Part shown: positions 2,004 to 31,161 of the stretch, in pieces
Numbering within the stretch: the first letter of the stretch is position 1
How the letters are laid out: every line of letters starts with the position of its first letter
Origin: a virus
Taxonomy: Duplodnaviria; Caudoviricetes
Direction: 5' to 3' (one strand)
IMG/VR virus record: IMGVR_UViG_3300032320_002027
Coordinates: 1 to 31,944 of that record
Length of the DNA: 31,944 bases
Program-made: the position numbers and the translations under genes
The notes under the pieces: generated by a model
Seen by the model: the letters and a program-made list of their open reading frames with translations, nothing else
The model's database searches: none
Told to the model about the DNA's origin: nothing

Positions 2004-2118
2004 GAAATCTTGGGAAATCGTCCAACACGGCTTGACAGCGAGCCGATGCCGACTATCTTTCCCGTGTCGCAAGTCGCGACAGGCAAGCGCAGCCGATGCG
2101 CAGAGAACGGAACGCACG
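2004..2118 (+). promoter_or_regulatory. Repeated promoter + structured leader, copy 1
   Basis: GTCCA 2020-24, TTGACA 2032-37, 16 bp, TATCTT 2054-59; hairpin TGTCGC-AAGTC-GCGACA 2065-81; GGC-AA-GCGCA-GCCGA-TGCGC 2082-2101. Confidence 0.9.
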
Positions 2119-2526
2119 ATGAACCAGAACACGAACAACGCCGCCGCCACGAAGGTCGTTCCCGCTAACTCCCGTTTCTTCACCCCGACGGCTGTCTCTG
2201 GCGTGGTCGTGTTCGTCAAGCCCGTAACGGAAATGGTTCACCGTACGAAGCGTCGCAACGGTTCGCTTCGCACCTACGGTCCGCGCTATATGCGCCTCCG
2301 CGTCCTGGTCCGCACGGACGAAGGCTGGACCCTGGCGGGGACCATTGGCAAGGCGTCGCACCACTCCGAAGTCCCCGACGTGCGCGTGGGCGACCGTATC
2401 CAGGTGGAGCCGATTGTGCTGTCCCGCAGTTACGGACAGGTCGAAGCCTGGGATAAGGGAATCTACTCCCCCGCGCACCTCTGCCGCACTCTCCGCGGCA
2501 AGGTGACCCGCGCCCGCCAGGCGTGA
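2119..2526 (+). CDS. Cassette gene 1, basic beta-rich hypothetical protein, 135 aa
   Basis: Single ORF between promoter/leader copy 1 and a terminator; ACGGA before the ATG. Confidence 0.8.
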   Translation: MNQNTNNAAATKVVPANSRFFTPTAVSGVVVFVKPVTEMVHRTKRRNGSLRTYGPRYMRLRVLVRTDEGWTLAGTIGKASHHSEVPDVRVGDRIQVEPIVLSRSYGQVEAWDKGIYSPAHLCRTLRGKVTRARQA

Positions 2527-2548
2527 GCCGACCCGAGCCGCGACCGCA

Positions 2549-2579
2549 AGCCCGCCGAAAGGCGGGCTGCGTCTTTTTT
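2549..2579 (+). terminator. Intrinsic terminator
   Basis: AGCCCGCC-GAAA-GGCGGGCT followed by GCGTCTTTTTT. Confidence 0.85.
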
Positions 2580-2580
2580 G

Positions 2581-2695
2581 GAAATCCTGCGATTTCGTCC
2601 AACACGGCTTGACAGGTATCCGATGGACGCTATCTTCCCCGTGTCGCCGCTCTGGCGACAGGCACGCGCAGCCGATGCGCTGAATGGAGTCTGCA
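2581..2695 (+). promoter_or_regulatory. Repeated promoter + structured leader, copy 2
   Basis: GAAATC-N4-GATTTC 2581-96, GTCCA 2597-2601, TTGACA 2609-14, TATCTT 2631-36; hairpin TGTCGCC-GCTCT-GGCGACA; GGC-AC-GCGCA-GCCGA-TGCGC. Confidence 0.9.
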
Positions 2696-3007
2696 ATGCT
2701 TCGCCCGTTCTGCAACGAATACTGTTTCTCCGACGTTCACCCGTTCGAAGTGGTCCGCCGCGTGTCCTCCAGTTGCGTGGTGCTGCGCAAGATGCGCGCG
2801 GAACTCGCGCCAGACTGGAAGCCGAACTGGATTCCTGGCGGCTTCGCTGGTCACGTCACGAACCAGGATTCCCAGCGGTGGAACTACGCGTCCGACCCTG
2901 AAGGCGAAGTGGTCCGCGTCCGCTTCACGAAGAACGGCTGGGCGTATAAGCGGCGGAGGTTCGTTATGGAGTCCGTCCCGCGCAAGTTCCACGATTACAA
3001 TTTCTGA
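2696..3007 (+). CDS. Cassette gene 2, hypothetical protein, 103 aa
   Basis: Single ORF between leader and terminator; GGAG SD; aromatic C-terminus FHDYNF. Confidence 0.8.
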   Translation: MLRPFCNEYCFSDVHPFEVVRRVSSSCVVLRKMRAELAPDWKPNWIPGGFAGHVTNQDSQRWNYASDPEGEVVRVRFTKNGWAYKRRRFVMESVPRKFHDYNF

Positions 3008-3015
3008 GGCTCCGA

Positions 3016-3053
3016 GCGACCGAACCCGCCGAAAGGCGGGTCGGTTGTTTTTT
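3016..3053 (+). terminator. Intrinsic terminator
   Basis: ACCCGCC-GAAA-GGCGGGT with extended stem, then TTGTTTTTT. Confidence 0.85.
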
Positions 3054-3055
3054 GG

Positions 3056-3171
3056 GAAATCCCTAGATTTCGTCCAACACGGCTTGACAGCATTCGGGGC
3101 GGTGCTATCTTTCCCGTGTCGCAAGTCGCGACGGGCAAGCGCAGCCGATGCGCACGAAACGGAGTCCAGCC
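3056..3171 (+). promoter_or_regulatory. Repeated promoter + structured leader, copy 3
   Basis: GAAATC-N4-GATTTC, GTCCA 3072-76, TTGACA 3084-89, TG-extended TATCTT 3106-11; same two-part leader as copy 1. Confidence 0.9.
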
Positions 3172-3516
3172 ATGCAAGTCGAAATCACCAACGCCACGTT
3201 CGGAACCAGCGGAACCGCCCTTCGTCACGGAACCGCCGTCGCCCGCGTCACGATCAACGGCGAGACGCGCGAACTTCCCGCCGTCTTCCAGTCGGAGTTC
3301 AACGGCGAAACCACCTGGCGCGTCCACGCTGGCGTCGCCGTGAAGTACCCGAAGGGAGATAAGGTCCACAACGTCGGAATGTGGGTCGAAGTGCGCGCCA
3401 CCGAAACCGTCTATTCGATCATCGCTGGACGCGCCACGATGCGTTCCGCTAGCCCCCGCTGCGTCGGGTTCTTCGATGATTGCGCCAACGCCGCCGCGCG
3501 CACCTTCCGCGCCTGA
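3172..3516 (+). CDS. Cassette gene 3, hypothetical protein, 114 aa
   Basis: Single ORF between leader and terminator; CGGAG SD. Confidence 0.8.
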   Translation: MQVEITNATFGTSGTALRHGTAVARVTINGETRELPAVFQSEFNGETTWRVHAGVAVKYPKGDKVHNVGMWVEVRATETVYSIIAGRATMRSASPRCVGFFDDCANAAARTFRA

Positions 3517-3538
3517 GCCGCGACCAGGACCGACCAGC

Positions 3539-3568
3539 CCGCCCGCCGAAAGGCGGGCGGCTTCGTTT
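3539..3568 (+). terminator. Intrinsic terminator
   Basis: CCGCCCGCC-GAAA-GGCGGGCGG then CTTCGTTT. Confidence 0.75.
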
Positions 3569-3572
3569 CCAG

Positions 3573-3688
3573 GAAACTTGCAGATTTCGTCCAACGCTAC
3601 TTGACACGGTTTCGGATCGCGCTATCTTCTCCGTGTCGGGAGTCCCCGACAGGCAAGCGCAGCCGATGCGCAGAGAATGGAACCCACG
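3573..3688 (+). promoter_or_regulatory. Repeated promoter + structured leader, copy 4
   Basis: GTCCA 3589-93, TTGACA 3601-06, TATCTT 3623-28; hairpin TGTCGGG-AGTC-CCCGACA; GGC-AA-GCGCA-GCCGA-TGCGC. Confidence 0.9.
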
Positions 3689-4003
3689 ATGAACCAGAAC
3701 ACGACCACGACCGCCACCGCCACCGCCACCGCCGCCACCGCCGCCACCGCCGCCCTGGAAGCCGCCCTGGCGGCTTGCATCGCCGCCGACCGCGCCCGCA
3801 ACGCGGCTTCCGACCGCTACGCCGACGCCATCGGCGTGAACTGCGAAGCGCAGCGCATGGGCGCGGACGGAACCTATACCCCGATCCAGGTGGCGCGCGC
3901 CGCCCGCGCGTTCGAAGCCGCGCAGACGGACTACTTCGAAGCCGTGGCGAAGTCCGAGGCGGCGCGGCACTCGCTCCGCGAGGCGGCGAAGCGCGCCCAG
4001 TAA
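3689..4003 (+). CDS. Cassette gene 4, Ala-rich helical protein, 104 aa
   Basis: Single ORF between leader and terminator; N-terminal (ACCGCC)n tract encodes TATATA. Confidence 0.8.
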   Translation: MNQNTTTTATATATAATAATAALEAALAACIAADRARNAASDRYADAIGVNCEAQRMGADGTYTPIQVARAARAFEAAQTDYFEAVAKSEAARHSLREAAKRAQ

Positions 4004-4027
4004 CCGACCCAGCCAGCCAAACGACCG

Positions 4028-4057
4028 ACCGCCCGCCGAAAGGCGGGCGGTTCGTTT
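4028..4057 (+). terminator. Intrinsic terminator
   Basis: ACCGCCCGCC-GAAA-GGCGGGCGGT then TCGTTT. Confidence 0.75.
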
Positions 4058-4071
4058 ACTGGCGGCGTAGG

Positions 4072-4542
4072 ATGCCCCGCGGAGGCGTTCGCAGCGTCGG
4101 GGGCTGTCTGGAGCCGCCCGAGCCGCGGAACGCCGTACGGGGCAAATCCGACGCCCTGGAGCGTTCGACCGTGCCGACGCCGAAACCACCCGCGAAGCCC
4201 CACGCCACCGCCGAAGCCGTAGCCCGTCTGCGCCTGGCGTGGGCGGTCGCCGCCGCGGGGGCTAGGGACGGGCGCATACCGCCCCGCCTGTTGCGCGCGC
4301 TGTTGCCCCAGGACGGCGACCGACGCGCCCTACGCGCCACCCTGCGCGCCGTAGCAGCCTCCGCGCCCGTCCAGCCCCGCGACGCCCTGCGGGTCGCTGC
4401 GCAGCCCGTGCCGTCGGTCGAACTGTTCGACGCGCTTACCGCCGCCGTGGACATGGCGCAGGACGCCACCGAACGCCGAAGCCTGGAGTACGCGCGCGCT
4501 TCGTGCGCCCGCGAACTCTGGGGCATCTCCCCGACGCGGTAG
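4072..4542 (+). CDS. Hypothetical Ala/Arg-rich protein (start uncertain, possibly GTG 4171)
   Basis: Fills the gap up to the convergent tail gene, with stops 3 nt apart; the C-terminal half looks helical. Confidence 0.35.
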   Translation: MPRGGVRSVGGCLEPPEPRNAVRGKSDALERSTVPTPKPPAKPHATAEAVARLRLAWAVAAAGARDGRIPPRLLRALLPQDGDRRALRATLRAVAASAPVQPRDALRVAAQPVPSVELFDALTAAVDMAQDATERRSLEYARASCARELWGISPTR

Positions 4543-4545
4543 CCG

Positions 4546-13840: not shown

Positions 13841-14167
13841 TCATCGGACATTTCCCCCGCCCAGTCCTGTCCGCGGTGGACGCCCGCGGCGGGGCTTCGG
13901 TGGTTCTGGAGGCGCGGCGGCTTCCTGCGGCGTCTGCGTGGCTGCTGGAGACGTCGGAGGTTCCTGGAGTGGCGCAGGGTCCGTCGGAGGCGCGGCGGCT
14001 TCCTGGGGCATTCCTGGGGCTGCTGCTGGCACGGGATCATCGTCGCCAGCGCAGCGGCAATAGCCGCGCGAGTGTAGCCATTCGAAGACGTGCCATTGGA
14101 CTTCGATCCGTGCGCCCGCCCGATACACGCTCCAGGGCTTGAGCAGGATTACCGCCTTGCCTACCAC
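13841..14167 (-). CDS. Small head-associated protein with Pro/Ala-rich tail and RRGRPP motif
   Basis: Overlaps the upstream gene end; short globular N-terminus plus low-complexity C-terminus. Confidence 0.55.
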   Translation of the reverse strand: MVGKAVILLKPWSVYRAGARIEVQWHVFEWLHSRGYCRCAGDDDPVPAAAPGMPQEAAAPPTDPAPLQEPPTSPAATQTPQEAAAPPEPPKPRRGRPPRTGLGGGNVR

Positions 14168-15354
14168 GCGGGACGCCCGTTCTTATGGAAGTCGGGCATG
14201 AACTGGTACACGGGTTCGAACTCCGTGCCGACCCAGGTCGCGACCATTTGGAGATGCCCGATCCGAACGTGCGGCGTCACGCCGATGCGCCAGCCAGCCG
14301 CGCGCGCCTTGCGCCAGAAATAAACGTCTTCGTCCACGCGCTTATCCCTCCACTCGCCGTCTTCGCCAGGGTCGCCCAGGAACCAGGGCTTGGCAAGCGC
14401 GCGCAGCGATTCGACGCGGATAAGCGTTAGCCCGAAATGCCCAAACAGAACGGGTAGCGTTAGTTCCTGAAGTCTCTCCACGGGAAGTTCGCGCAGCGGC
14501 TTTCCGTCGCCATCGTCCAAAGCGGAGATGATGGCGGAGCGGTCGCGCCCCATTTGCAGCGCGCAGACGGCGTCCATCTTCGTGTCTTCGATGATCCGAT
14601 GGAGCGCAACGATATCGTGCGCGTCAAAGATGGAATCGTAATCGATTGCCAGGACGTATTTCGCGTTCGGAATCGCGGCTACGTCGGACATGATCCGTTG
14701 CAGACACGCGCCCCAGAATACGCCCGTTGAACGGATGATCGGCATACCCAGCGCGCCCAGCGCGGTGGACACGCAATGAATGTTCTCCGTCCACAACAGG
14801 CGGGGAAGCGTCATCACGGCGACCACGCCTGGGAGCGGTTCAATCGGGAACCGCTGGCGTCCGCGCTTCACGAAGCGGAGATTTAGCGACACAGGAAGCG
14901 CGGCGCACGTCCCAGGTTCTCCGTTCCACTCGCCTTCCAGGTCGAAGCCCGCCGCGGCTGCGCACTCCGTTAGTTTCTGTCGGTTGAAGATGGCGAAGTG
15001 GCGGTCGTTCGCGTCGATATGCCCGCCCAGCAGATAGCGTTCCACCAGCCCGCCGCCGCCGTTCTGGTACATAGCCACGATTCGGTCGAAGTCGGGGACG
15101 GCGATTTCGCAGACGCCGCCGATGCGCAGCGCGCGCGCCCACTCGCGCAGAACGTCCACCGTCTGCGCGTATGGGATATGCTCCAGGACGTGCGACGCGC
15201 GGATGGCATCCACCGATCCGTCCACGATGCCGTCCAGGCTTTCCGCGCGCCTCCCTTGCGCGATATCCCAGCCCGTGTAGCCCTCTGCTGGTCCCTTCGG
15301 ACCGCAGCCGATATCCAGCCGAAGCGGCTGTCCTGTCTGCTGTTCCTGGATCAT
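14161..15354 (-). CDS. SAM-dependent methyltransferase fused to a GT-A-like glycosyltransferase domain
   Basis: RLDIGCG motif I and ASHVLEH in the N-half; LAIDYDS (DxD), FGLTLIR and EDVYFW...GH in the C-half. Confidence 0.8.
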   Translation of the reverse strand: MIQEQQTGQPLRLDIGCGPKGPAEGYTGWDIAQGRRAESLDGIVDGSVDAIRASHVLEHIPYAQTVDVLREWARALRIGGVCEIAVPDFDRIVAMYQNGGGGLVERYLLGGHIDANDRHFAIFNRQKLTECAAAAGFDLEGEWNGEPGTCAALPVSLNLRFVKRGRQRFPIEPLPGVVAVMTLPRLLWTENIHCVSTALGALGMPIIRSTGVFWGACLQRIMSDVAAIPNAKYVLAIDYDSIFDAHDIVALHRIIEDTKMDAVCALQMGRDRSAIISALDDGDGKPLRELPVERLQELTLPVLFGHFGLTLIRVESLRALAKPWFLGDPGEDGEWRDKRVDEDVYFWRKARAAGWRIGVTPHVRIGHLQMVATWVGTEFEPVYQFMPDFHKNGRPAW

Positions 15355-15387
15355 AAAGACAGCCCGACCGCGCAAACGGTCGGGCTG
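15354..15387 (-). terminator. Terminator/attenuator hairpin after the capsid genes
   Basis: 11-bp perfect stem CAGCCCGACCG/CGGTCGGGCTG (15360-15387) followed on the minus strand by TCTTT and then the ATG. Confidence 0.65.
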
Positions 15388-15409
15388 CGGTTGCACCGAT
15401 TGTAGCGGC

Positions 15410-18006: not shown

Positions 18007-20877
18007 TCAGAGCGCGGCGATTCGGCGTTCCGCCTCGCGGGCAATGTCTTCGTATTCGGGGTTTAGAACGGGCTGCGTTGCGCAGCGACAATTCGGATGC
18101 AACGGCGGTCCGTCGATTCGTTCGTAGTCCGCCTTATACGTCCCGCCGTCCGCGCCGACGATTACGCTCCCCTTCGGATAGAACGGATCGTCCAGCGCGA
18201 CGGACCGCTGTCCGAACGCCTTCGCAGCGGCTTCGCAGAACTCGCATGGGTCGGGCGCAAGTAACCACGTCTTTCCCTTTACCAGCCCCGTGGACCGCCA
18301 AGCATCTTGCTCCGCGGTGGACGCGGCGTATGCGGCTTCCGTGCGGGCAACGCGCACGGCGCGCCACGTCTGCGCGCGTTCGTCGCCCTGCGGGCGCGCC
18401 CAGTCCTGGACGCGCTGCGCGAGTTCGTCCACCGTGTCGCCGTCCTGGAGTCCGCGCCCCAGCAAGTCCGCAACGGCTTCGGTCCTGGTGGTGTTTAGCC
18501 CCGTGGTCGCTCGCGTGGAAAGAACGGTCGAAGTCCTGGAGACGTATTCATCCAGTTCGGCACTAGTCCAGCCGAGCCGCGCCACCGATACGTCGCCCGT
18601 GAGTTTGGACAGCGTCGCCATGCCGAGTTCCGCGCCGTGGCGTAGCGATTCCTCCAGGTACGGTCCGAACGCCTGGCGCAGCGATACCGACCATTCGCGC
18701 TGCGAAATCACTTCCAACACGCGGTCGATAGTCGCCGCCGTCGGCGCGCCTTCCTTGCGGATCGCAGCCACGACGGCTTCCACCTGGGCGGAGAACACGC
18801 CGTCCACTTCGTCCGCGAGTTTGCGCAACGCTTCATCGTCCACCAGTTCGCCCGTGGGGGACGCCTTCAGCGTGAGCATCGGATGCCCTGCGAATTCATC
18901 ATGGGTATCCAGCCAGAGTTCGCGCGCGCTGGTGTTCTTCGCGTGTCGCTTGCAGTTGCAGCCCGCAGCCTTCGTCCCGCGGGCGCGGTCGAACTCGCCT
19001 ACCTTCCGCTTTGCCCACGCCCAGCCTTCGTCGCCGCCCCAGCCCTGCCAGGCTTGCCAGCCCTTGCCCTGTTCGTCCCACGTCTCGCCCTGTTTGTCGG
19101 ACTGGTGGCGTTCGAAATAGGCGACCATTCGGCGGACCGTGTCTTCCGAGAGCGCAACGCGGTTCGCCAGGTCGCGCGCGCGCGCGATTCCAACGGGCGT
19201 CATTCCGCGTTGGGACGGCGGCTTCGTCTCGCGGACCGCCAGCGCGCGTTCGGCGTTCGCCGCCACCTGGGCGGGCGGGACCGTGTCGATATCCTCCAAC
19301 GCCTTCGTTTCTCCGCAGTATTCGTACGCGATTGCCGCCGCCTGGTCGGACGGGTAGCCCTCGCGGATTAGTTGCGCAATCTTGGCGGATACGCAATCGT
19401 CCGCGGCTTTCTGGTTCGCAGGATCATCCACGAACCAGGTATGCGCGGCGTTCTGCGACGGCGCGGCGGGCGCAGCGGGCGCGGCTGGAGCGTCCGCGAC
19501 GGACGGCGCAGCGGGCGCGGACAGCGTCATCGGCGGAGCGGTCGGACCGCCGAGCGGCGTTCCGTTCACCAACAGCCGATCCGCCATCGGGTCGGGGTTC
19601 GGGTCCAGTCCGTTCCGCTCGCGCGCTTCGTTGGGCGTTAGCCAGCCGCCAGCGACCGCCACTTGCGTTTCCTGCAAGTCCTGCTGGCGGTTCGCGGGGA
19701 CTGGATCATCGTACGCCAGCACGGCGTCGCCCTCTAGCCCGAACATCGGCAATAGCCGCTGGTTCAGCGTTTCTTCGTCCATCCTGCAAAGCGGTAGCAC
19801 CGTCATTTCCCGCCAGGACGCGTAGCCGACGGTAGCCGACGCCAAGTTCGGGTCGTTCGCGCGGAGCATGGAGACGGGGACGCCGAATACCGCGGCGATT
19901 TCCTCCACGATTTCCGTGCGCCCCGTCAAGTCCTTTGGCGGAAACTGCAACGCCTTAAGGTCGATTTCCGCGGTGGTAACCAGGAAATTCCCATTGTTCC
20001 GCGGTCCGCGCAGTTTGTTCGCGATGGAAGTTTCGATCCTGTCCAGTTCGTCCGCGCTGGCGTCGCCCTTCACGGTTAGCAGCCAATCGGGACGCGCGTG
20101 GTTCGCGAACGTCGCCAGGTCCATCGAATGCAACGCGATGTTTGCTTGCGCTGCCCCCCACGCCGCTTCTAGTTTGCCCATTCCGTACCAGAGGTCGCGC
20201 GGGTTCGGTCGGCGGAAGTGGATTACTTCGTCGGGCGTGAGCGTGATACGCGATTCGCTGGATGCGCCGTAGCGGTAGCCCGCGATGAAGCGTTCCGTAT
20301 CGCGGATGATCTCCACCCATTGCGGCGGCATTGCCCAGAGTTCGGAGGGAACGCCCATGTTGCCCGTAACGACGTGCAAGTAACTGTTCCCCGTGAGTTC
20401 CTGCCAAACCACGCGAAGTACCGTGAGGTCGTGTCCGTTGTGGTATGGGTTCGAAACCGCCAGCAGCCGCAATAGCGGATGATCGTCGGTCACTTCCTCA
20501 AAGTCGTTACCGAGTTGCGCAGCCTTCCGCAGAACGTAGGTAGACGGATTGCGCGCGGCGTCACCGCGCAGCCAGGCGGCGGACTTGCGCGACGCCTTCC
20601 GCGTGTTCCAGAGTTTGCGCGTGGTCGGGCTGGATCGGACGTAGAGCCGAAGCGGAGTGGACGCCACGGCGGTGGCGTTGATAGACGCCGCGGCGTAAAT
20701 CCACGACGCGTACGCCCGCACGGCGGTTTCGTAACTGAACGGCTGCGGAGCGACGCCCGTACCGCCGTCGATCACGCGCATGGAAGCCCGCGTCCAGGCG
20801 TTCGCGTCGGTCGCCTTCGCCTCGCTGGGCTTCGCGTCGGGTCGGTTGAAGCGGAACAGGTCCAGGAATCGTTTCAT
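18007..20877 (-). CDS. Portal protein fused to extra domains and a C-terminal Mu gpF/SPP1 gp7-like head morphogenesis domain, 956 aa
   Basis: ELTGNSY, EVIHFR, IAAVFGVP and LTPNEAR (portal); VARTE, CEFC and PPLHPNCRC (gpF); ATGA overlap with the terminase stop. Confidence 0.9.
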   Translation of the reverse strand: MKRFLDLFRFNRPDAKPSEAKATDANAWTRASMRVIDGGTGVAPQPFSYETAVRAYASWIYAAASINATAVASTPLRLYVRSSPTTRKLWNTRKASRKSAAWLRGDAARNPSTYVLRKAAQLGNDFEEVTDDHPLLRLLAVSNPYHNGHDLTVLRVVWQELTGNSYLHVVTGNMGVPSELWAMPPQWVEIIRDTERFIAGYRYGASSESRITLTPDEVIHFRRPNPRDLWYGMGKLEAAWGAAQANIALHSMDLATFANHARPDWLLTVKGDASADELDRIETSIANKLRGPRNNGNFLVTTAEIDLKALQFPPKDLTGRTEIVEEIAAVFGVPVSMLRANDPNLASATVGYASWREMTVLPLCRMDEETLNQRLLPMFGLEGDAVLAYDDPVPANRQQDLQETQVAVAGGWLTPNEARERNGLDPNPDPMADRLLVNGTPLGGPTAPPMTLSAPAAPSVADAPAAPAAPAAPSQNAAHTWFVDDPANQKAADDCVSAKIAQLIREGYPSDQAAAIAYEYCGETKALEDIDTVPPAQVAANAERALAVRETKPPSQRGMTPVGIARARDLANRVALSEDTVRRMVAYFERHQSDKQGETWDEQGKGWQAWQGWGGDEGWAWAKRKVGEFDRARGTKAAGCNCKRHAKNTSARELWLDTHDEFAGHPMLTLKASPTGELVDDEALRKLADEVDGVFSAQVEAVVAAIRKEGAPTAATIDRVLEVISQREWSVSLRQAFGPYLEESLRHGAELGMATLSKLTGDVSVARLGWTSAELDEYVSRTSTVLSTRATTGLNTTRTEAVADLLGRGLQDGDTVDELAQRVQDWARPQGDERAQTWRAVRVARTEAAYAASTAEQDAWRSTGLVKGKTWLLAPDPCEFCEAAAKAFGQRSVALDDPFYPKGSVIVGADGGTYKADYERIDGPPLHPNCRCATQPVLNPEYEDIAREAERRIAAL

Positions 20878-22076
20878 ATCACCTTCCAGATTAGCGGTTT
20901 GTGCCGTCGCTTCGCGGCGATTGCCAGCGCAAGCGCGCACACTCCATCATCGTGTCCACTTTCCGCGGCGTAGGAAACGCGCCCGTTGGTATATCGGAAT
21001 CCGAACGCCTCCAGTTCATGCCGCAGCCAGCCGTCGGGGAACCGTACTTCGCGCGATTGGATCGCGCTCGCGAGTCCCTCCATTAACTGTTGCTTGCTCT
21101 GCTGGCTGAACTTCCAGCCCTCCGCGCCACGACATACGCGCGTCAAGTCCTCCACGATTGGATCGCCCACGCCCGTGGAATCCACGAACGCGCGGCGGTT
21201 CCCGATCATGCGCGCCACGCGCTCGCGCGTTGCGCCCCAATCGGCTTGGAATCGCTCCAGGTGCGCCACGTTGCCGTCCGCGTCCAGCCCGCAAACGACG
21301 GTCCAATCCTGGGACTTCGCCAGGTCCACGCCGTACGCGACCACGGACGCGGTGGAGAGTTCGCCCACGCAAGCGCGGATGGCTGCAAGCCCGAACGGGT
21401 TCGCGCCATCGTCGGTAGGTTCCGCCAGGTAGAGTTCGCGGAAGACGTTGTCTGGGAGGATTGCGCGCGCTTCCTCCACTTCGTCGCGGTGGAGGATGCC
21501 GCCTTCGACGGCGTCCCAGGCGGTAAGTTTGTGGTACGCCATGTTCGGCGCGCCCGATTCCGCTTTCCGCGCCAGGCGGTATACCCAGTTCTTCCGACCC
21601 TTTACGTTGCCGATGATGCGCACGGGTCCGCGCGTCGCGGTAAGTGTGGAGCGCACGGCGTTCCACGCGTCTTCGCTGCAACGCGTCGCTTCGTCCACGA
21701 CCGCGGCGGAAACGTCTTCACCGTAGAGCGAGTCGGGATTGTCGGCGGACTTGAACCAGACGCGCGCCCCGTTCGCCAGCGTGACGCACAGTTCGGAATC
21801 GTTCGCCTTCCAGGTGCGCTTCCCTGCGTCGGCTTGCTGGAGCATGGAGCAAAGCCGCTGGAAACCTACCGTCTTCGTTACATGGAACGTCGGAGCGATC
21901 CACCAGAACGCGCCGCCGCCGCGGCTGTTCCAGGCTTGCGCCAGTAGCCATAGCATACAGCCCGCCGTCTTCCCCGATTTGGTGGAGGCTTCCACGATCA
22001 CGATGCGCGCTTCGTCGCAAATCGCGGCGTACTGGCGCGGGTACATTTGGGGCAACGTCGGAGGCGCGACTATCAC
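20874..22076 (-). CDS. terL: Terminase large subunit
   Basis: Walker A-like ASTKSGKT, Walker B VVDEA, nuclease GVDLA...D, DSTGVG and HDDGV. Confidence 0.95.
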   Translation of the reverse strand: MIVAPPTLPQMYPRQYAAICDEARIVIVEASTKSGKTAGCMLWLLAQAWNSRGGGAFWWIAPTFHVTKTVGFQRLCSMLQQADAGKRTWKANDSELCVTLANGARVWFKSADNPDSLYGEDVSAAVVDEATRCSEDAWNAVRSTLTATRGPVRIIGNVKGRKNWVYRLARKAESGAPNMAYHKLTAWDAVEGGILHRDEVEEARAILPDNVFRELYLAEPTDDGANPFGLAAIRACVGELSTASVVAYGVDLAKSQDWTVVCGLDADGNVAHLERFQADWGATRERVARMIGNRRAFVDSTGVGDPIVEDLTRVCRGAEGWKFSQQSKQQLMEGLASAIQSREVRFPDGWLRHELEAFGFRYTNGRVSYAAESGHDDGVCALALAIAAKRRHKPLIWKVI

Positions 22077-24862: not shown

Positions 24863-24895
24863 AAACGAACCGCCGCGCAACGGAGCGCGGCGGGT
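24863..24895 (-). terminator. Terminator closing the leftward cassette array
   Basis: Minus strand CCGCCGCGC-TCCGTT-GCGCGGCGG then TTCGTTT, the same tail as the terminators at 3568 and 4057. Confidence 0.6.
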
Positions 24896-25170: not shown

Positions 25171-25451
25171 CCTTCGTTCAGGCGGACGCGCTTCATGCCG
25201 CGTTCGGCGGCTTCGCACTCCGCAATCACGGCGGCGCGGTCCGCGTCGGTCGTGGCGGCTTCCCAGCGAGTGTGCCAGTCGTTGTGACGGGTCCAGGCAA
25301 GCGCGAAAGCCGCGCGCCCGAGTTCGCGCACGATCATATCGGCGGGCGTCGGGACGAACTGCGAATCGGAGTGGATGTTGCGAACGACGCGGAGGGCTGG
25401 GGTAATCGCGTTCAGTTCGACTTCGGTAACTGCAATGGTGGTCGCGGACAT
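25158..25451 (-). CDS. Cassette gene 5, hypothetical protein, 97 aa
   Basis: ATG follows leader copy 5 with CGGAG SD. Confidence 0.8.
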   Translation of the reverse strand: MSATTIAVTEVELNAITPALRVVRNIHSDSQFVPTPADMIVRELGRAAFALAWTRHNDWHTRWEAATTDADRAAVIAECEAAERGMKRVRLNEGWTL

Positions 25452-25568
25452 GGCTGGACTCCGTTTGGTGCGCATCGGCTGCGCTTGCCTGTCGGGGACT
25501 CCCGACACGGGAAAGATAGCGGGACTTCGGCGCGTGTCAACCACGCATGGACAGAATCCGCGCGTTTC
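25452..25568 (-). promoter_or_regulatory. Repeated promoter + structured leader, copy 5
   Basis: Minus strand GTCCA (25552-48)-N7-TTGACA (25540-35)-16-TATCTT (25518-13); leader matches copy 4. Confidence 0.9.
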
Positions 25569-25571: not shown

Positions 25572-25611
25572 AAAAAGACAGGCGCGCCAGCCCTGGGGGA
25601 CTGGCGCGCCT
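25572..25611 (-). terminator. Intrinsic terminator
   Basis: GGCGCGCCAG...CTGGCGCGCC stem followed on the minus strand by TGTCTTTTT. Confidence 0.8.
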
Positions 25612-25617
25612 GGTGGT

Positions 25618-25842
25618 TCACTCTCCGACGTATTCGTAGGAACCGTCCGCATTGCGGACCACCGTATGGGCGGGCGAAATCATGTTGCGACCGTCGCGCC
25701 CGAACATGACGTGGCGCACGTTGCCCGAGAGGTCCACCAGCAGCCCGACGCCCAGGACGGACGAATCCAGCGTCGCCAGCAGCGAAGCGGCGTGGTTGAA
25801 GGCGGCGGTAACTTCGAAGACGGGGGAGGCGTTCGCGGACAT
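25618..25842 (-). CDS. Cassette gene 6, hypothetical protein, 74 aa
   Basis: Single ORF between leader copy 6 and a terminator. Confidence 0.8.
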   Translation of the reverse strand: MSANASPVFEVTAAFNHAASLLATLDSSVLGVGLLVDLSGNVRHVMFGRDGRNMISPAHTVVRNADGSYEYVGE

Positions 25843-25958
25843 GGCTAACTCCATTCGTGCGCATCGGCTGCGCTTGCCCGTCGCCAGACTGGCGACACGG
25901 GAAAGATACTCCGTCTTCGGCGGGCGTCAAGTGCTGTTGGACGAAATCGGAGGATTCC
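25843..25958 (-). promoter_or_regulatory. Repeated promoter + structured leader, copy 6
   Basis: GTCCA-N7-TTGACG (25930-25)-16-TATCTT (25908-03); hairpin GTCGCCA-GTC-TGGCGAC; GGC-AA-GCGCA-GCCGA-TGCGC. Confidence 0.9.
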
Positions 25959-25960: not shown

Positions 25961-25992
25961 GAAAAAGAAATCCGCCCGCGCGTGGCGGGCGG
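25961..25992 (-). terminator. Intrinsic terminator
   Basis: Minus strand CCGCCCGC...GCGGGCGG then ATTTCTTTTT. Confidence 0.8.
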
Positions 25993-26014
25993 AGTCGGTC
26001 GGCGGCTGCGGGCG

Positions 26015-26311
26015 TCACTCCGTCGGCGGGCATTGATAGACGGTGCGCGGAAGCGGGCGGCACTTGCAGCCCTTGCGGGACTCGCAGCGCGCAAGCATCT
26101 CGCGAATCTCGCGCTTGAACTCCATGCAACGGTCGTTGTCCCCAGTAGCGAAGGCGTACGCGGTCGCGACGCCGAGCGATTCCACGGCGAACGCGCGCAG
26201 TTCCTCCAGCGACCATTCCTTCGCATTGCAGTCCAGGATATGGACGCGCCAATTGATTTCTTCCTCCAGGCGGTTCGTAATCTGGGACTGCGTGAAGTTC
26301 TTCGCGATCAT
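26015..26311 (-). CDS. Cassette gene 7, hypothetical protein, 98 aa
   Basis: Single ORF between leader copy 7 and a terminator. Confidence 0.8.
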   Translation of the reverse strand: MIAKNFTQSQITNRLEEEINWRVHILDCNAKEWSLEELRAFAVESLGVATAYAFATGDNDRCMEFKREIREMLARCESRKGCKCRPLPRTVYQCPPTE

Positions 26312-26430
26312 GGCTGGCACTCCGTTCGGTCCGCGTCGCCCGCGGCTGGCTGTCGGGGACTCCCGACACGGAGAAGATAGCGACACTCTGGAGCGTGTCA
26401 AGGCGTGTTGGACGATTCCCGTGGAAATAC
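26312..26430 (-). promoter_or_regulatory. Repeated promoter + structured leader, copy 7 (variant pseudoknot)
   Basis: GTCCA-N7-TTGACA (26401-396)-16-TATCTT; hairpin as copy 4; GCC-AG-CCGCG-GGCGA-CGCGG. Confidence 0.9.
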
Positions 26431-26655: not shown

Positions 26656-26861
26656 TACTTCGCCTCCGATCCGAGTGCGACCATATAGCCGCCCCAGTAG
26701 CCATGCCCCTTAAACCAGGTGACGCCGTCGGATCGGTCCGACAGTTCGTACATCTCCACGCCGACCACGGCGGAAATCGTTCCTTCGAACGACGCGCCGC
26801 CCCAGGGATTCACGAAGCGGACGCGGGTTCCGATTTCGAAGGTGGCGGGCGCGCTGTTCAT
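26655..26861 (-). CDS. Cassette gene 8, small SH3-like beta protein, 68 aa
   Basis: Follows leader copy 8; FEIGTRVRF...GTI...YEL pattern. Confidence 0.75.
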   Translation of the reverse strand: MNSAPATFEIGTRVRFVNPWGGASFEGTISAVVGVEMYELSDRSDGVTWFKGHGYWGGYMVALGSEAK

Positions 26862-26977
26862 TCGTTGCTCCATTCGATCCGCGTCGCCCGCGGCTGGCTG
26901 TCGGGGACTCCCGACACGGAGAAGATAGCGGGACTTCGGCGCGTGTCAACCACCAATGGACAGAATCCCAAGATTTC
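26862..26977 (-). promoter_or_regulatory. Repeated promoter + structured leader, copy 8 (variant pseudoknot)
   Basis: GTCCA-N7-TTGACA (26949-44)-16-TATCTT (26927-22); spacer identical to copy 5, leader identical to copy 7. Confidence 0.9.
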
Positions 26978-26990: not shown

Positions 26991-27089
26991 GTCCATGTCC
27001 GCTTGACACGCGGCGCGGCGTCTGCTATCTTCCCCATGTCGCCACTACGGCGACAGCCAGGCGCGGGCGACGCGCGCGGAGTTTTCCGA
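26991..27089 (+). promoter_or_regulatory. Repeated promoter + structured leader, copy 9 (divergent from copy 8)
   Basis: GTCCA 26991-95, TTGACA 27003-08, 17 bp, TATCTT 27026-31; TGTCGCC-ACTAC-GGCGACA; GCC-AG-GCGCG-GGCGA-CGCGC. Confidence 0.9.
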
Positions 27090-27860
27090 ATGTCGTTCAT
27101 CCTCTCCCAAGTCCCGCCAGCCGCGCAGAATCGCTTGCTTTCTGCGCCGCACGGGCGGAACCAATGGTGCGGACCCGCGGCGGTTTCCGCCGTCACGGGC
27201 TGTTCCAGCGACCTGGCGGCGTTGCTGGTCGCGCAGGACCGCTACGGCGTCGATTGCGTCCGACGCCTCCGCGGCGTCCGTGGGACGTACACGCGCGAGG
27301 TTTGCAAGGTGCTGCGCGTCCTGGGCTGGCGCAGCGTGGTTTCCTGGTTCCGCTCCGAGGATCGCGAGACGTTCGCGGCGTGGACGTACCGAATGCGCGC
27401 GGACCGCCGTGCGTGGATCGTCTCCACGTCGGAACATTGGCTGGCGTTCCAGGGCGACCGCGTGGCGGACAATCGCGCGGGGCTGGTCCGCGCGGAGGAA
27501 AGCGCGCTGCGGCGCGGTCGCGTGGTGGAGGTCGTTTGCTGCTGGCGGACCGAATTGGTTGACTTCGCCGCGCTGGAGCGGTCGCTGCTGGACCAGGTGC
27601 GCGAGCAGCGACCCGCGGCGCGCGCGCGCGCGCGGACTACCTGGGAGGTCGCGACGGTCGCCGCCGACGGGCGCGAACACTCGCAGCACGGCTTCGCGTC
27701 GAAGCGCGCCGCGCTTGACTTCCTGCGGCGCATGAACGTCCCAGGCGGGACGGAGACGGAAACCCGCTGGGTCGGCGCGGTCGCGCTGCGCGTGGCGGAG
27801 ACGGGCGAACGCTGCGTGGTCGCGGAGCGCGGAGAGACGGACGCGTGGGCGGCGTCGTGA
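27090..27860 (+). CDS. Cassette gene 9, papain-fold (C39-like) cysteine peptidase domain protein, 256 aa
   Basis: NQWCGPAAVS ... EHWLAF ... VADN gives a plausible Cys-His-Asp triad. Confidence 0.6.
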   Translation: MSFILSQVPPAAQNRLLSAPHGRNQWCGPAAVSAVTGCSSDLAALLVAQDRYGVDCVRRLRGVRGTYTREVCKVLRVLGWRSVVSWFRSEDRETFAAWTYRMRADRRAWIVSTSEHWLAFQGDRVADNRAGLVRAEESALRRGRVVEVVCCWRTELVDFAALERSLLDQVREQRPAARARARTTWEVATVAADGREHSQHGFASKRAALDFLRRMNVPGGTETETRWVGAVALRVAETGERCVVAERGETDAWAAS

Positions 27861-27864
27861 TTCG

Positions 27865-27898
27865 GCGGGGCGCGCGCGGAAGCGCGCGTCCCGCATTC
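27865..27898 (+). terminator. Strong hairpin after cassette gene 9 (terminator-like, weak U tract)
   Basis: GCGGGGCGCGCGC-GGAA-GCGCGCGTCCCGC. Confidence 0.55.
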
Positions 27899-27900
27899 GG

Positions 27901-28017
27901 CATTCCGCGAGGAATGTCCAAAGTACCTTGACGGAGTTGGACGATAGCGGTATCGTCCGAATGCCTGGACTCACCAGGCGGGCTACGCGCAGCCGATGCG
28001 CGCGACGGAGTCAATAC
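27901..28017 (+). promoter_or_regulatory. Repeated promoter + structured leader, copy 10 (drives recombination/replication genes)
   Basis: GTCCA 27916-20, TTGACG 27928-33, 17 bp, TATCGT 27951-56; GCCTGG-ACTCA-CCAGGC; GGC-TA-CGCGCA-GCCGA-TGCGCG. Confidence 0.85.
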
Positions 28018-28146
28018 ATGGAAGACGGTTCCCCGTTCATCGATGTTACGCCGCTGGCGTTCATCATCCCGATGCTGGTTTGCCTGTTCTGCGATTGGCG
28101 CGCCTCGCGCGCCGCGAAGCGCGTCCGCGCGGAGGTGCGCCGATGA
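28018..28146 (+). CDS. Small single-TM peptide, 42 aa
   Basis: CGGAG SD after the leader; hydrophobic PLAFIIPMLVCLF and basic tail; ATGA overlap with the next gene. Confidence 0.6.
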   Translation: MEDGSPFIDVTPLAFIIPMLVCLFCDWRASRAAKRVRAEVRR

Positions 28147-28952
28147 CGCGCGGACCGCTGTTCATGTCGGAGGCGGAATACTCCGCGCTTCCTGGGCTGC
28201 GCGCTTCGTGGGTGAAGGTTCTCTGGCAATCGACGCCAGCGCACCTTCGCGCGAGGATGGAGGATTCCACGGATACCGACGCGTTCCGATTCGGGCGCGC
28301 CGTCCATTGCGCATTGCTGCGCCCGATGGACTACGCCGCGGAGTTCGTGGTATCCCCGAAGTTCGACCGTCGGACGAAGCAAGGGAAGGAAGACGCCGCC
28401 GCGTTCGAAGCGCGCTACGGCGGGGCTGGCGTCGCGATGATCGACCAGGACGAAGCCAACGGCGTCGAAGCCGTTCGGCGCGGCGTCCTGGCGAACCAGA
28501 CCGCCGTCGCGCTGCTGAACATGGCGGAGACGCGCGAGGCTGTCTACCTGGGCGAAATCGCTGGCTATCCGTGCAAGTGCCGCGTGGACGCCGTGGGTAA
28601 CGGCGTGTTGCTGGACGTGAAGACTTGCATATCCGCCGCGCCGCGCGCGTTCGCGCGGGCTTGCGCGGACTACGCGTACCATCTCCAGTTCGCGTTCTAT
28701 CGCGAAATCCTGCGCCAGAACGCCGTCCACGTCTCCGACGTGGTGCTGGTCGCCGCGGAGAAGTCCGCGCCGTACGCGGTCGCGCTCTACCGAATGCGTG
28801 AAGCGGACCTGGATGCCATGTTGCCCGTGGTCCAACGCGCTTGCGCGCTGTTCGCGGAGTGCGCCGACGCCGACCGCTGGGATGGCTACGGCGACGCCGT
28901 CCAGGAAATCGCGATGCCCGATTGGTCGATCCACGGAGGGAACACGCAATGA
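28143..28952 (+). CDS. RecE/exonuclease VIII-like PD-(D/E)XK nuclease (DUF3799-like)
   Basis: FGRAVHCALL, CKCRVD...LLDVKT, YHLQFAFY and AAEKSAPYAV motifs. Confidence 0.9.
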   Translation: MTRGPLFMSEAEYSALPGLRASWVKVLWQSTPAHLRARMEDSTDTDAFRFGRAVHCALLRPMDYAAEFVVSPKFDRRTKQGKEDAAAFEARYGGAGVAMIDQDEANGVEAVRRGVLANQTAVALLNMAETREAVYLGEIAGYPCKCRVDAVGNGVLLDVKTCISAAPRAFARACADYAYHLQFAFYREILRQNAVHVSDVVLVAAEKSAPYAVALYRMREADLDAMLPVVQRACALFAECADADRWDGYGDAVQEIAMPDWSIHGGNTQ

Positions 28953-29821
28953 CGAAGAAAGCCGAAGCCGCGGCGGTCGCCGCGCAGCCGTCCACGCCAG
29001 AGCCGCCGCGGTCGCTGTTCGCCGCGCTGCTGGAGGCGCAACGCGCCATCGGATCGGTCGGGAAGGACTCGCGGAACGACTTCCATAAGTACCGCTACGT
29101 TTCCGCCGAGGCGATGATTTCCGCTTGCCGCTCCGCGCTGTCGGACGGCGGGCTAACGGTGCGTCGCCGTTCGTGGGAACTCAGTCCCGACGGGCTGTTC
29201 GTCGTGTCGAAGTTCGAAATTGCCTACGCGCTCACGGGCGAATCCACCACCGATACCGTCCCCTGGGCGATTGTCGTGGAGAAAGGAAAGCCCGCGGATA
29301 AGGCGTTGGCGTCCGCGCTTACCACTTCGCTTTCGTACTGGCTGCGCGACTTGCTGCTGTTGCCGCGTGAAGAGGAAGACGCGATGGACCAGCGGAACGA
29401 CAAAACCGCCGAGACGGTCCACGGAATCCGACGCGCAGCCCCAGCGGTCGCCAACGTGTCCGCGCTGAACGAACGCGTTAAGGCGGTGCGCGAGAACCCG
29501 CCCGCGCAGTTCCAGACGGTCGCCGTTGCGGTGCAGGCGGAGCAGCCGACGCCGAAGCCCGAGCCGAAGCCCGAGCGAATCACCGTGGTCGGCAAACTGG
29601 AAAGCGTCTGGGACCGCGACGCGAACGGACAGGTTTGGCAGTTCGTCGGGCTGAACACGGACGGCGGATACCGCGAATACCTGGTGGACCGCGCCGTGGG
29701 AGACGTGTCCGACCTACTGGCGAAGACGGTTTCCGCCAACGTCCAGCCCCGCGAGGGGAAGGCGGGGCTAATTCTGTCGGTTGCCGAGATTGACGCGGGG
29801 ACGGGTGAAATCCTGTTCTAA
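28949..29821 (+). CDS. ERF-family single-strand annealing protein with C-terminal extension
   Basis: VGKDSRNDFHKYRYVS...KALASALTTSLSYWL...EED; paired with the RecE-like gene. Confidence 0.8.
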   Translation: MTKKAEAAAVAAQPSTPEPPRSLFAALLEAQRAIGSVGKDSRNDFHKYRYVSAEAMISACRSALSDGGLTVRRRSWELSPDGLFVVSKFEIAYALTGESTTDTVPWAIVVEKGKPADKALASALTTSLSYWLRDLLLLPREEEDAMDQRNDKTAETVHGIRRAAPAVANVSALNERVKAVRENPPAQFQTVAVAVQAEQPTPKPEPKPERITVVGKLESVWDRDANGQVWQFVGLNTDGGYREYLVDRAVGDVSDLLAKTVSANVQPREGKAGLILSVAEIDAGTGEILF

Positions 29822-30132
29822 CGGCGACGGATCGAAGGACGCGCCCGCTGCGAACCAGCGGGCGCGCCCGTTCACCGTCGCGGAGGCTCTGGGCGCGGCT
29901 GAAATCGTCTGGGTTACCACGGGCTTCCCCGTGGTCGTGGTGCGCGTAGGGATCGTCCTGGACCTGTTGCCAGGCGACCTAACGCCGCAGCGCGGACGCC
30001 TTGCGCGTCGCCTGGGACTGTCGCGCCCGCAATTTGAAGCGTTGGAAGCCGTCTGGACGCTGGCGGATGATTCAGTCCGCTTCGCGGCTGTCCTGGAGGC
30101 GGTACGCATCGTGAGAAACGGAAGGACTTCGG

Positions 30133-30624
30133 ATGCCCTGGATAAAGGTACGGACGAACCTCGCGGCGGACCCGCGGGTGGATGAAATCGCACGGAGGAC
30201 GGGGAGGACGGTGCAACACGTTCTGGGCGCGCTGGTCGCGCTCTGGTCGTTCGCGGACGAACACTCCACGGACGGACGCCTGGCGTTCGTGCGGCGCGAA
30301 CGGATCGACGCATTCTGCGGCGGGACGGACGCGGACTTCTCCAGCGCGCTGGAGGCTGTCGGATGGCTGGAGTTCCTTCCTGGGGTCGATTGCTTCGCCA
30401 TCCCGCGTTTCGCGGAACACAACGGGGAGAGCGCGAAGGCGCGGGCGCAGGGCGCGAAGCGCGTAGCACGCCACCGTTACGCAAGTGGTGGAGCGTGTAA
30501 CGCGTCCAGCGTTACAGAACAGCGCGAAGACGGTGAATCAAGTAACGGTGGACGCGTTACCAGAGAAGAGGAGAGAAGAGAAGAGAAGAAAAAGCGCGCG
30601 CGCGCTGGAGGCGGTGGACTATGA
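30133..30624 (+). CDS. Putative replication initiator (wHTH-type N-terminus)
   Basis: MPWIKVRTNL..DPRV...GALVALWSFAD...LEAVGWL...F..HNG pattern, internal iteron-like repeats, E/R/K-rich linker. Confidence 0.65.
   Translation: MPWIKVRTNLAADPRVDEIARRTGRTVQHVLGALVALWSFADEHSTDGRLAFVRRERIDAFCGGTDADFSSALEAVGWLEFLPGVDCFAIPRFAEHNGESAKARAQGAKRVARHRYASGGACNASSVTEQREDGESSNGGRVTREEERREEKKKRARAGGGGL
30463..30594. repeat. Candidate replication origin: inverted 19-bp iterons plus purine-only tract
   Basis: GTAACGCGTCCAGCGTTAC (30497-515) matches the reverse complement of 30542-560 at 18/19 positions; partial copy at 30463-480; A/G-only run about 30562-594. Confidence 0.6.
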
Positions 30625-31094
30625 ACGAATCCCCGACCTGGGAGGACGTGCGGCGGAAAATCAACGGGCTATGGTCGCGCTACGATCCGACGCCAGAGGA
30701 ACGCGAGTTCATTACGCGCCGCCTTTCGTCGCTGAACCAGCGGTGGTTGGACGCAGCGGTGGAGACGTACCGCGCGTCCAGTTCGTCGGGCGTGTTCCAT
30801 ATCGCGGAACTGCTGGAACACTATCGACGGATCGCGAACACGGGAACGGAGCGCGAGACGCGCAAGCGCGATCCAGAGGGCGGCGACGCCGCGCGCTGGG
30901 CTGCGGAGCGCGAGCGCGACCGCGTGGCGGCTATAGCCTTCCTGGAGCGCAGCGACCGCGAGCGAATCCGCGCGGCGGTCGGTGAACTGCGGAAGACGGG
31001 CTGGCTATCGCCCGATCCTCTACCGACCCGTTTCGATGAATGGGGAACGAACTCGCTATTTGCAGTCCAATCGCGCTTGACGCACGGCGCGTAG
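30621..31094 (+). CDS. Putative replication accessory (loader-like) protein, 157 aa
   Basis: ATGA overlap with the initiator; helical; position equivalent to lambda P. Confidence 0.5.
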   Translation: MNESPTWEDVRRKINGLWSRYDPTPEEREFITRRLSSLNQRWLDAAVETYRASSSSGVFHIAELLEHYRRIANTGTERETRKRDPEGGDAARWAAERERDRVAAIAFLERSDRERIRAAVGELRKTGWLSPDPLPTRFDEWGTNSLFAVQSRLTHGA

Positions 31095-31161
31095 ACAGTA
31101 TGATCCGACCAGCGGGATTCCCCCGCGGGCTTTGCGCAGCCGATGCGCCTGGAGTCTTTGA
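31065..31161 (+). promoter_or_regulatory. Repeated promoter + structured leader, copy 11 (upstream of csrA-like gene)
   Basis: GTCCA 31065-69, TTGACG 31077-82, 16 bp, TATGAT 31099-104; GCGGG-ATTCC-CCCGC; GGC-TTT-GCGCA-GCCGA-TGCGC. Confidence 0.8.

Follow-up and report, generated by a model that had tools for sequence, protein, structure and literature searches.

Both RNase E and RppH require single-stranded 5′ ends, and RppH of Bacillus subtilis requires at least two unpaired bases, as described in PMC3997798. Folded RNA alone can stop RNase J1, and an exonuclease-resistant RNA (xrRNA) blocks this enzyme in vitro (PMC5760640). In Staphylococcus aureus, cleavage by RNase III leaves cspA mRNA with a shorter 5′ hairpin and makes it more stable and better translated (PMC3386247). 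Here, we describe an RNA leader motif of 36–41 bases in the early region of a phage genome (Duplodnaviria; Caudoviricetes; IMG/VR record IMGVR_UViG_3300032320_002027, positions 1 to 31,944); the window below means this whole stretch of 31,944 nucleotides. From 5′ to 3′, the motif consists of a hairpin of 5–7 base pairs (bp), which we call P1, one purine and a 3+5-bp H-type pseudoknot with a GA loop, whose stems are termed S1 and S2 and whose loops L1 to L3. It may shield the 5′ ends of early mRNAs.

A structured leader at the early promoters

The window is a complete phage genome of 31.8 kb with a terminal repeat of 123 bases and 65% G+C. Sites of the form TTGAC-N17/18-TAnnnT occur exactly 11 times in it, and the motif follows all 11. 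A structure descriptor blind to promoters recovered the same 11 copies and no other match in the window; on 100 dinucleotide shuffles, this descriptor gave a mean of 0.57 matches (maximum 3) and the promoter pattern a mean of 0.25 (maximum 2). A preliminary description of this DNA had placed seven copies on the plus strand and four on the minus strand; all 11 were found where it put them, with no match to a reversed-pattern control. It had also reported that the linker and loop triplets are altered together in three variant copies (pseudoknots beginning at 26350 and 26898 on the minus strand and at 27056 on the plus strand), and this was borne out. The copies are as follows.

2066..2101, plus strand: copy 1; P1 at 2066-2080 (5 bp), purine at 2081, pseudoknot at 2082-2101, ATG at 2119
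2643..2680, plus strand: copy 2; P1 at 2643-2659, pseudoknot at 2661-2680, ATG at 2696
3118..3153, plus strand: copy 3; P1 at 3118-3132, pseudoknot at 3134-3153, ATG at 3172
3635..3671, plus strand: copy 4; P1 at 3635-3650, pseudoknot at 3652-3671, ATG at 3689
25470..25506, minus strand: copy 5; P1 at 25506-25491, pseudoknot at 25489-25470, ATG at 25451
25859..25896, minus strand: copy 6; P1 at 25896-25880, pseudoknot at 25878-25859, ATG at 25842
26331..26367, minus strand: copy 7, S1 variant GCC/GGC; pseudoknot at 26350-26331, ATG at 26311
26879..26915, minus strand: copy 8, S1 variant GCC/GGC; pseudoknot at 26898-26879, ATG at 26861
27038..27075, plus strand: copy 9, S1 variant GCC/GGC; pseudoknot at 27056-27075, ATG at 27090
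27963..28002, plus strand: copy 10; leader of a small open reading frame (ORF; 28018-28146) and the exoVIII-ERF-replication operon
31111..31148, plus strand: copy 11; P1 at 31112-31126; leader of an ORF (31162-31338) and the CsrA-like gene

Late genes occupy the minus strand between about 24.4 kb and 4 kb, flanked by the early region. In the descriptor scan of the window, every early leader carried the motif and no late leader did. Most of the early region is made of cassettes, each comprising a promoter, a leader, a short ORF and a terminator; repeat analysis showed that these cassettes are repeated in the window, and they have probably been shuffled by recombination. The plus-strand terminator-like hairpins belong to repeat family D8.

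2020..2059, plus strand: promoter-like site of copy 1; GTCCAA at 2020-2025, -35 at 2032-2037, -10 at 2054-2059
2597-2636, 3072-3111, 3589-3628, 26991-27031, 27916-27956 and 31065-31104, plus strand: promoter-like sites of the other plus-strand copies, with the layout of copy 1
26922..26961, minus strand: promoter-like site of copy 8, divergent from that of copy 9
26374-26413, 25903-25942 and 25513-25552, minus strand: promoter-like sites of the other minus-strand copies, with the layout of copy 8
2549..2568, plus strand: terminator-like hairpin at the end of cassette 1 (family D8)
3024-3041, 3539-3560 and 4033-4050, plus strand: similar terminator-like hairpins
25579..25612, minus strand: terminator-like hairpin at the end of a minus-strand cassette
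25971-25993 and 24870-24893, minus strand: similar terminator-like hairpins

The promoter-like sites have features of their own. In nine of the 11 in the window, 16 bases separate TTGACA from the -10 hexamer (e.g. 2032-2059), 17 being usual. A near-invariant GTC(C/T)A, an element absent from every search pattern used, begins 12 bases 5′ of TTGAC in 73 of 74 promoters, including all 11 of the window at the same offset. Together, GTCCAA-N6-TTGAC forms an imperfect dyad overlapping the -35 box, and the element could be an operator or activator site for a phage helix-turn-helix protein (719-1048, 1045-1401) or an extra host promoter element. Neither GTCCAA upstream of the -35 box nor the promoter-less copies that relatives carry behind long, processing-like stems had been seen in the preliminary description.

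The window encodes a portal, a terminase, an HK97-type capsid, RusA, a RecE/exoVIII-like nuclease, an ERF-like annealing protein, a replication initiator, two helix-turn-helix proteins and a weakly matching CsrA-like ORF. Two short ORFs had no family in a scan of PHROGs. On the minus strand, 14161-15396 within the head operon encodes a methyltransferase and glycosyltransferase-like fusion with many unnamed viral relatives. Also on this strand, 18007-20940 encodes a 977-amino-acid fusion of a portal with a Mu gpF-like head morphogenesis domain.

Covariation and position of the fold

The pseudoknot typically has an S1 of 3 bp, an L1 of mostly 2 bases, an S2 of 5 bp, an L2 of 0 and an L3 of 2, and the P1 loop mostly has five variable bases. 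Outside the GA there is almost no sequence conservation. In 32 copies picked by hand for diversity, double changes occurred at 13 of 13 pairs and 99.8% of alignment cells could pair; such cell counts overstate the number of independent events because the copies are related by descent, perhaps also by gene conversion. We then left S1 out of a model of P1 and S2, which returned 111 hits, 81 of them distinct, a few weak false ones included. Among these 81, 95.8% of S1 cells paired, compared with 19–47% in slid controls, and the three S1 pairs showed 3, 8 and 1 double changes. Starting from promoters, 75 of 80 distinct sites in contigs of the clade carried a GA-loop S2 hairpin. The S1 complement lay upstream in 73 of these 75 copies, which were chosen by S2 only, both misses being single mismatches. 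In 10,000 permutations the complement was present in a mean of 60.7 copies and at most in 68.

A further comparison used two orthologous positions set by gene order, before the following genes.

28143..28952, plus strand: RecE/exonuclease VIII-like gene, the anchor for relatives and for orthologous motif positions
31326..31547, plus strand: CsrA-like small ORF (PF02599, E 0.001, below the Pfam cut-off)

At both positions S1 varies between lineages and is always matched: GGC/GCC, CGG/CCG and CGT/ACG before exoVIII, and GGC/GCC, CCG/CGG, GGG/CCC, GGT/ACC and CGGC/GCCG before the CsrA-like gene. A copy was present within 420 bases in 8 of 13 contigs checked for exoVIII and 6 of 8 for the CsrA-like gene, the misses including three motif-less outgroups, truncated windows and one variant knot, recognized by eye, in L147. 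The CsrA-like ORF itself (atlas score 0.88, a lead only) is kept in 7 sequences of the clade with a common C-terminal motif, R-V-A-x-D-[FL]-P-R-x-[IV]-x-I, and its protein had no sequence match in the PDB.

By these four covariation tests on sequences, we take the pseudoknot to be real. The controls leave some shared ancestry, and several independent changes would still be needed to account for the pairings. Compensatory changes thus back both crossed stems of the hairpin-plus-pseudoknot fold given in the preliminary description. Its caveat that S1 covariation came down to one base pair no longer applies, since all three S1 pairs covary across phages; the further S1 covariation in homologues that it asked for was sought and found. 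Across 74 distinct cores, we counted 13 S1 pairings and 25 S2 pairings. L3 is GA in the 68 cores with a 3-bp S1 and has three bases in the six with a 4-bp S1, although for a 3-bp S1 the descriptor allowed no L3 other than 2 and some copies can be read either way. The GGC/GCC type is over-represented because the patterns used to find relatives fixed GGC...GCCGA, variants coming from other copies in the same contigs. In 45 distinct knots we saw no clear pattern relating the first L1 base to the S2 junction pair, with which it might form a base triple. Folding of the 11 leaders, which covers nested pairs only, gave P1 in 11/11 and S2, whole or partial, in 11/11; the joint formation of both stems is a prediction. 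The z-scores of these leaders are modest (-0.1 to -2.8); the case for the fold rests on covariation, not on energy.

The position of the motif is as regular as its shape. The first paired position is the 7th base past the -10 hexamer: it is paired in 70/72 copies, is a purine in 72/72 and has a pyrimidine just 5′ of it in 66/72; the T preceding it pairs in only 36/72. Transcription from sigma70 promoters usually starts at this 7th base, which makes the first pair of P1 the predicted 5′ end. Counted from this predicted +1, no unpaired base stands ahead of P1 in 54 of 56 promoter-led unique cores, and one does in the other two. The preliminary description had put the hairpin 5–7 nucleotides past the -10 box; that position stood, with the 7th base as the best start. 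Its cis-acting place at the mRNA 5′ end gained support through the predicted +1. The pseudoknot does follow the hairpin as it said, but not directly, one purine lying between them in 55 of the 56 cores.

Downstream, the pseudoknot ends 0–8 bases before the Shine–Dalgarno sequence (SD) and 12–20 bases before the ATG in 74 retained cores, a set filtered for SD and ATG from which five hits were dropped (two window copies with a weak SD, each 17 bases from its ATG, and three likely chance hits). The SD is unpaired or weakly paired in most predicted folds. The motif marks genes that come first in a unit or follow a gap; the starts of exoVIII and ERF overlap upstream stop codons.

Range of the motif and internal copies with predicted masking

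Protein and pattern searches identified about 30 other contigs with the motif, many of them near-identical populations. Their TerL proteins, where included, are 71–82% identical to that of the window, and ten motif-bearing exoVIII sequences grouped with 100/100 support against two motif-less ones in a midpoint-rooted tree, most inner branches of which were unresolved. Two complete phages with 44% TerL identity gave no model hit, and distant exoVIII phages gave no convincing one (best 21.5 bits, E 0.39, apparently within coding sequence). With an exact 20-mer pattern, 17 of 19 hits lacked the context of promoter plus hairpin. In G007 (L393, L394) and G006 (L398), the motif follows promoter-like sites, identified by eye, that lack TTGAC, which suggests a different host or sigma factor with the RNA fold kept.

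Other leaders in this wider group look different. In the distant exoVIII phages L049, L050, L052-L054, L060 and L062, a single hairpin without a knot often stands right after the promoter, in several cases with a CAAT-containing loop; this may be a simpler relative or else a 5′ hairpin of independent origin. L131, L149 and L144 carry 5–11 repeated sigma70 promoter cassettes with short, A-rich, motif-free leaders and constitute a natural contrast group. A tRNA gene is present in L146 (8268-8341, plus strand), ending just before a motif-bearing promoter, and in L147 (53-126, minus strand); ARAGORN gave no tRNA-type hit in the window.

As for the host, a pattern scan of a genome collection gave 111 single hits, about the number estimated for chance, and the sole structure-like one, L202, lies within smc coding sequence and was rejected. 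Among 301 genomes of the class to which G008, a metagenome-assembled genome labelled Phycisphaerae, belongs, 67 encode exonuclease relatives, this being the only class searched; the four best are 26–34% identical to the window protein and motif-free, so this is proof of little as to the host. The model had no hit in two genomes of one genus, and an atlas search returned viral clusters or mixed taxa only.

Promoter-less copies lie inside operons in the L146 group (L146, L397, L142, L150, L042, L433), L147, L154/L159, L119, L398 and L394; in several relatives, such a copy occupies the position of copy 10 behind a long interrupted stem. All nine hairpin-preceded internal sites, from about five lineages, fold as one interrupted stem of 19–23 pairs. 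Its upper part has 8–10 perfect pairs and is separated by a small internal loop from a lower stem, in which the 5′ arm and loop of P1 provide the 3′ strand. The stem sequences are unrelated between lineages and the layout is kept. A tenth site, in L395, is ambiguous and resembles a decayed promoter.

In longer folding windows, the predicted probability of P1 was at most 0.15 in 7 of 10 precursors, and it was 0.31–0.99 after a simulated cut at the foot of P1. The promoter copies of the window, folded with upstream sequence, had P1 at 0.92 or more in 10 of 11 cases. As modelled, the phage masks the internal module and exposes it when it is 5′-terminal or freed. The module thus probably needs to sit at a 5′ end, and the masking is hard to explain for a position-independent enhancer.

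The modelled long stem resembles an RNase III site, as all nine sites span the roughly two helical turns of such a site, in which an internal loop is allowed. The T7 site R1.1 receives a single cut in its internal loop. RNase III of Escherichia coli is described as using an 11-bp helix above the cut, with AU pairs in a proximal box and UA/UG in a distal box, and internal loops can limit its cleavage to one strand (PMC1540722). When applied by hand, the 11-bp rule for the minimal E. coli substrate (PMC1540722) placed the cut 2–4 bases before P1.

Functional readings

We tentatively favor a shield of the 5′ end, made of RNA only, that would act against RppH, RNase E and RNase J, with a probability of roughly 0.45. 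This proposal builds on sequence, covariation, position and distribution as observed, and on start sites, folds and a mutual exclusion of P1 and long stem as predicted. With the sequence as observed and the start site as predicted, transcription at promoter copies would begin on the first pair of P1, so that RppH, the RNase E sensor and RNase J would find no free 5′ tail. We infer that P1 would stack over the single purine onto S1 and S2, giving a knotted helix of 13–15 bp, in which S1 could not be peeled from the 5′ side unless S2 opens, a second barrier should P1 breathe or be trimmed. Internal cistrons would hide the module in the predicted 19–23-bp interrupted stem, and an RNase III-type cut near the internal loop, which we also infer, would free it 2–4 bases from the new 5′ end so that P1 refolds. 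With the GC-rich leader locked away and the SD 0–8 bases downstream left open, early mRNAs would be both long-lived and translatable. We prefer a role at the 5′ end mainly because internal modules are, by prediction, masked and become exposed once 5′-terminal or freed. In a bolder form that we consider rather unlikely, the knot would be a protein-free universal phage cap, a mechanical block to 5′ decay like xrRNAs, installed by transcription or by RNase III release of a masked copy, which may also dock the 30S subunit.

Several points weigh against the shield. Three of the ten internal sites do not exclude P1 in longer folding windows (0.37, 0.53 and 0.76), and at three near-identical sites P1, in the scored register, drops to about 0.1 with 2–4 bases left in front. 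The upper stems, 8–10 bp and almost all GC, do not follow the sequence rules of E. coli RNase III, which may not be those of the host enzyme. Moreover, the 5′ arm of the long stem contains or closely follows the stop codon of the upstream gene, so a terminating ribosome could open the stem without any cut, and ribosome melting is a real alternative to cleavage. A plain hairpin would already hide a 5′ end, so the shield accounts less well for the pseudoknot, with its invariant GA, than for P1. The knot could serve as a second lock or as a contact for the ribosome or a protein, and both roles may coexist. Every retained copy lies 12–20 bases from an ATG, which a ribosome-linked role fits equally well. 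The start site, and hence the 5′ position, is predicted, so that the shield stands on sequence and folds; the ring fold of true xrRNAs is lacking in the motif; and the copies are kin by descent, perhaps with gene conversion, while S1 has only 3 bp.

Of the other readings, ribosome docking is possible but doubtful. Here the pseudoknot would bind ribosomal protein S1 or the 30S platform and present the SD, P1 would only tidy the 5′ end, phage mRNAs would out-compete those of the host, and processing or melting of the long stem would activate internal cistrons. It agrees with a knot just ahead of SD and ATG in 74/74 retained cores and with the choice of unit-first or post-gap genes, and the invariant GA could be a contact; spacing, however, is tight toward the 5′ hairpin (1 base) and loose toward the SD, and late genes have their own SD without the motif. 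Protein S1 binds H-type pseudoknots (SELEX, tmRNA, preQ1, rpsO), and standby of 30S and S1 on processed tisB mRNA needs a 5′ pseudoknot, although this tisB knot has other dimensions and acts about 100 bases away (PMC7708055). No standby site seems needed by the leaders described here, as their SD is unsequestered in most predicted folds. We consider it improbable that the shape instead marks early mRNAs for a phage protein, for example a CsrA-like one, that later represses or stabilizes them, the internal stem being a coupling switch opened by terminating ribosomes. The motif is indeed on every early leader and no late one in the window, stop codons overlap or abut the long stems, and a CsrA-like ORF is present in the 7 clade sequences compared, with the motif upstream of it in the window and in 5 of 7 other contigs checked. 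Binding of CsrA close to the 5′ end of flhDC mRNA can protect this message (PMC3997798). Such a tag would nevertheless have nearly no conserved sequence besides GA to recognize, many leaders of the clade have GGGG or AGGG as SD and offer no GGA for a CsrA-type protein, and the CsrA match falls below the Pfam cut-off.

Action on RNA polymerase as a put/nut-like antiterminator, one of the functions offered in the preliminary description, is very improbable; the stabilizer it also named gained indirect support, and its translational enhancer or operator is still a candidate. Although the motif is promoter-proximal, has two helices one purine apart, loosely like HK022 put, and follows divergent early promoters as in lambdoid phages, most cassettes hold one gene and a terminator and then at once a new promoter, and read-through at 4033 would enter the convergent late operon. 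Furthermore, put has about 73 bases, a V shape, a triplex and sequence-critical bases, and the word pseudoknot is absent from the main text of the paper describing it (PMC9378689). Hardly credible, finally, is a DNA-level or neutral origin, with palindromic operators or a recombination-copied cassette, as with PeSL, in which pairing is incidental. The cassettes are repeated and probably recombination-shuffled (cf. PMC2839356), and the phage has RecE- and ERF-like proteins; yet crossed covariation is unreadable from double-stranded DNA, copying would keep sequence and not yield 13 S1 and 25 S2 pairings, and the orientation is fixed to transcription. By analogy, PeSL-type shuffling may account for copy number, not for structure.

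Comparison with known systems

A cmscan of the window against Rfam 15 at the gathering score gave four weak hits (best E 2.5), none on a copy, in keeping with the failure of the preliminary description to match a known family, and six relatives gave two tRNA hits only. We found no description of the motif in searches of open-licence PMC and bioRxiv papers. Fremin et al. 2023 mined 8,495 anonymous csRNA candidates from IMG/VR (PMC10690425); motif strings had no match in four supplementary files of that study, and the motif could sit unnamed among its candidates. The motif is thus an RNA family undescribed in Rfam and the literature searched, with clean covariation and a pseudoknot near the smallest possible size, and it is the standard early leader of a clade of small uncultured phages, genome-wide. 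Its masked internal copies suggest a design in which processing makes a protected 5′ end. With a length of 40 bases and a freely variable sequence, it is testable at once in laboratory E. coli or B. subtilis, and such work would directly address whether bacteria have natural elements of the xrRNA or cap type; if the proposed role is true, it would be a portable mRNA stabilizer or translation element.

As predicted for the motif, the 5′ stem-loop stabilizers of E. coli ompA and papA and of B. subtilis aprE (PMC3997798), together with cspA (PMC3386247), have a paired 5′ end near the SD, and their termini are primary or processed, as proposed here. These are single hairpins on single genes, whereas the motif has in addition a minimal pseudoknot, which would stack on the hairpin, and recurs on all early transcripts of a phage clade. 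In the acceptor pseudoknot of the tRNA-like structure of turnip yellow mosaic virus (TYMV), a hairpin is stacked on the 5′ side. This knot (PDB 1A60/3PHP; PMC2873773 Table 1) shares an S1 of 3, an S2 of 5 and an L2 of 0 with the motif and has the coaxial stack proposed for it; its dimensions (3, 4, 5, 0, 3) include loops of 4 and 3, compared with 2 and 2 here. The TYMV element ends a plant virus RNA at its 3′ end with a T-loop and CCA, while the motif occupies a predicted 5′ end and has a variable hairpin loop and no conserved CCA. We rejected tRNA mimicry, as the motif lacks CCA and T-loop, lies upstream of ORFs and has varying downstream bases. The tisB +42 mRNA (PMC7708055) also has an H-type pseudoknot near a processed bacterial 5′ end and upstream of a ribosome-binding site, but with S1 9, S2 5, L1 0, L2 2, L3 3 and a sequestered ribosome-binding site about 100 bases off; in the motif the SD is adjacent and mostly open, without a distant single-stranded standby site.

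The xrRNAs of flaviviruses and plant viruses (PMC5760640) are likewise compact, protein-free and pseudoknotted and act against 5′–3′ decay, the role proposed here, although they come from viruses of eukaryotes, exceed the motif in size and enclose the 5′ end in a ring. In the motif, the covarying pairs comprise only the hairpin and the two-stem knot, and no three-way junction or ring is evident. The intergenic interrupted stems of T7 early RNase III sites (R1.1 type) also have about two turns, while the long stems described here are GC-rich and overlap a downstream refolding module. HK022 put is a promoter-proximal two-helix RNA as well, but has about 70 bases, two long stems with a triplex and conserved G35/A9 (PMC9378689), compared with 36–41 bases, another topology and another cassette logic. 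PeSL cassettes of T4-type phages (PMC2839356) similarly repeat a terminator, a sigma70 promoter and an SD before short early ORFans; their stem-loop lies in or before the promoter and terminates, whereas the motif lies inside the transcript, has no U tract and is preceded by a separate terminator ahead of the promoter. By defining features, the motif thus falls outside xrRNAs, tRNA-like structures, put and PeSL, and we regard it as a new RNA family that would work like a 5′ stabilizer.

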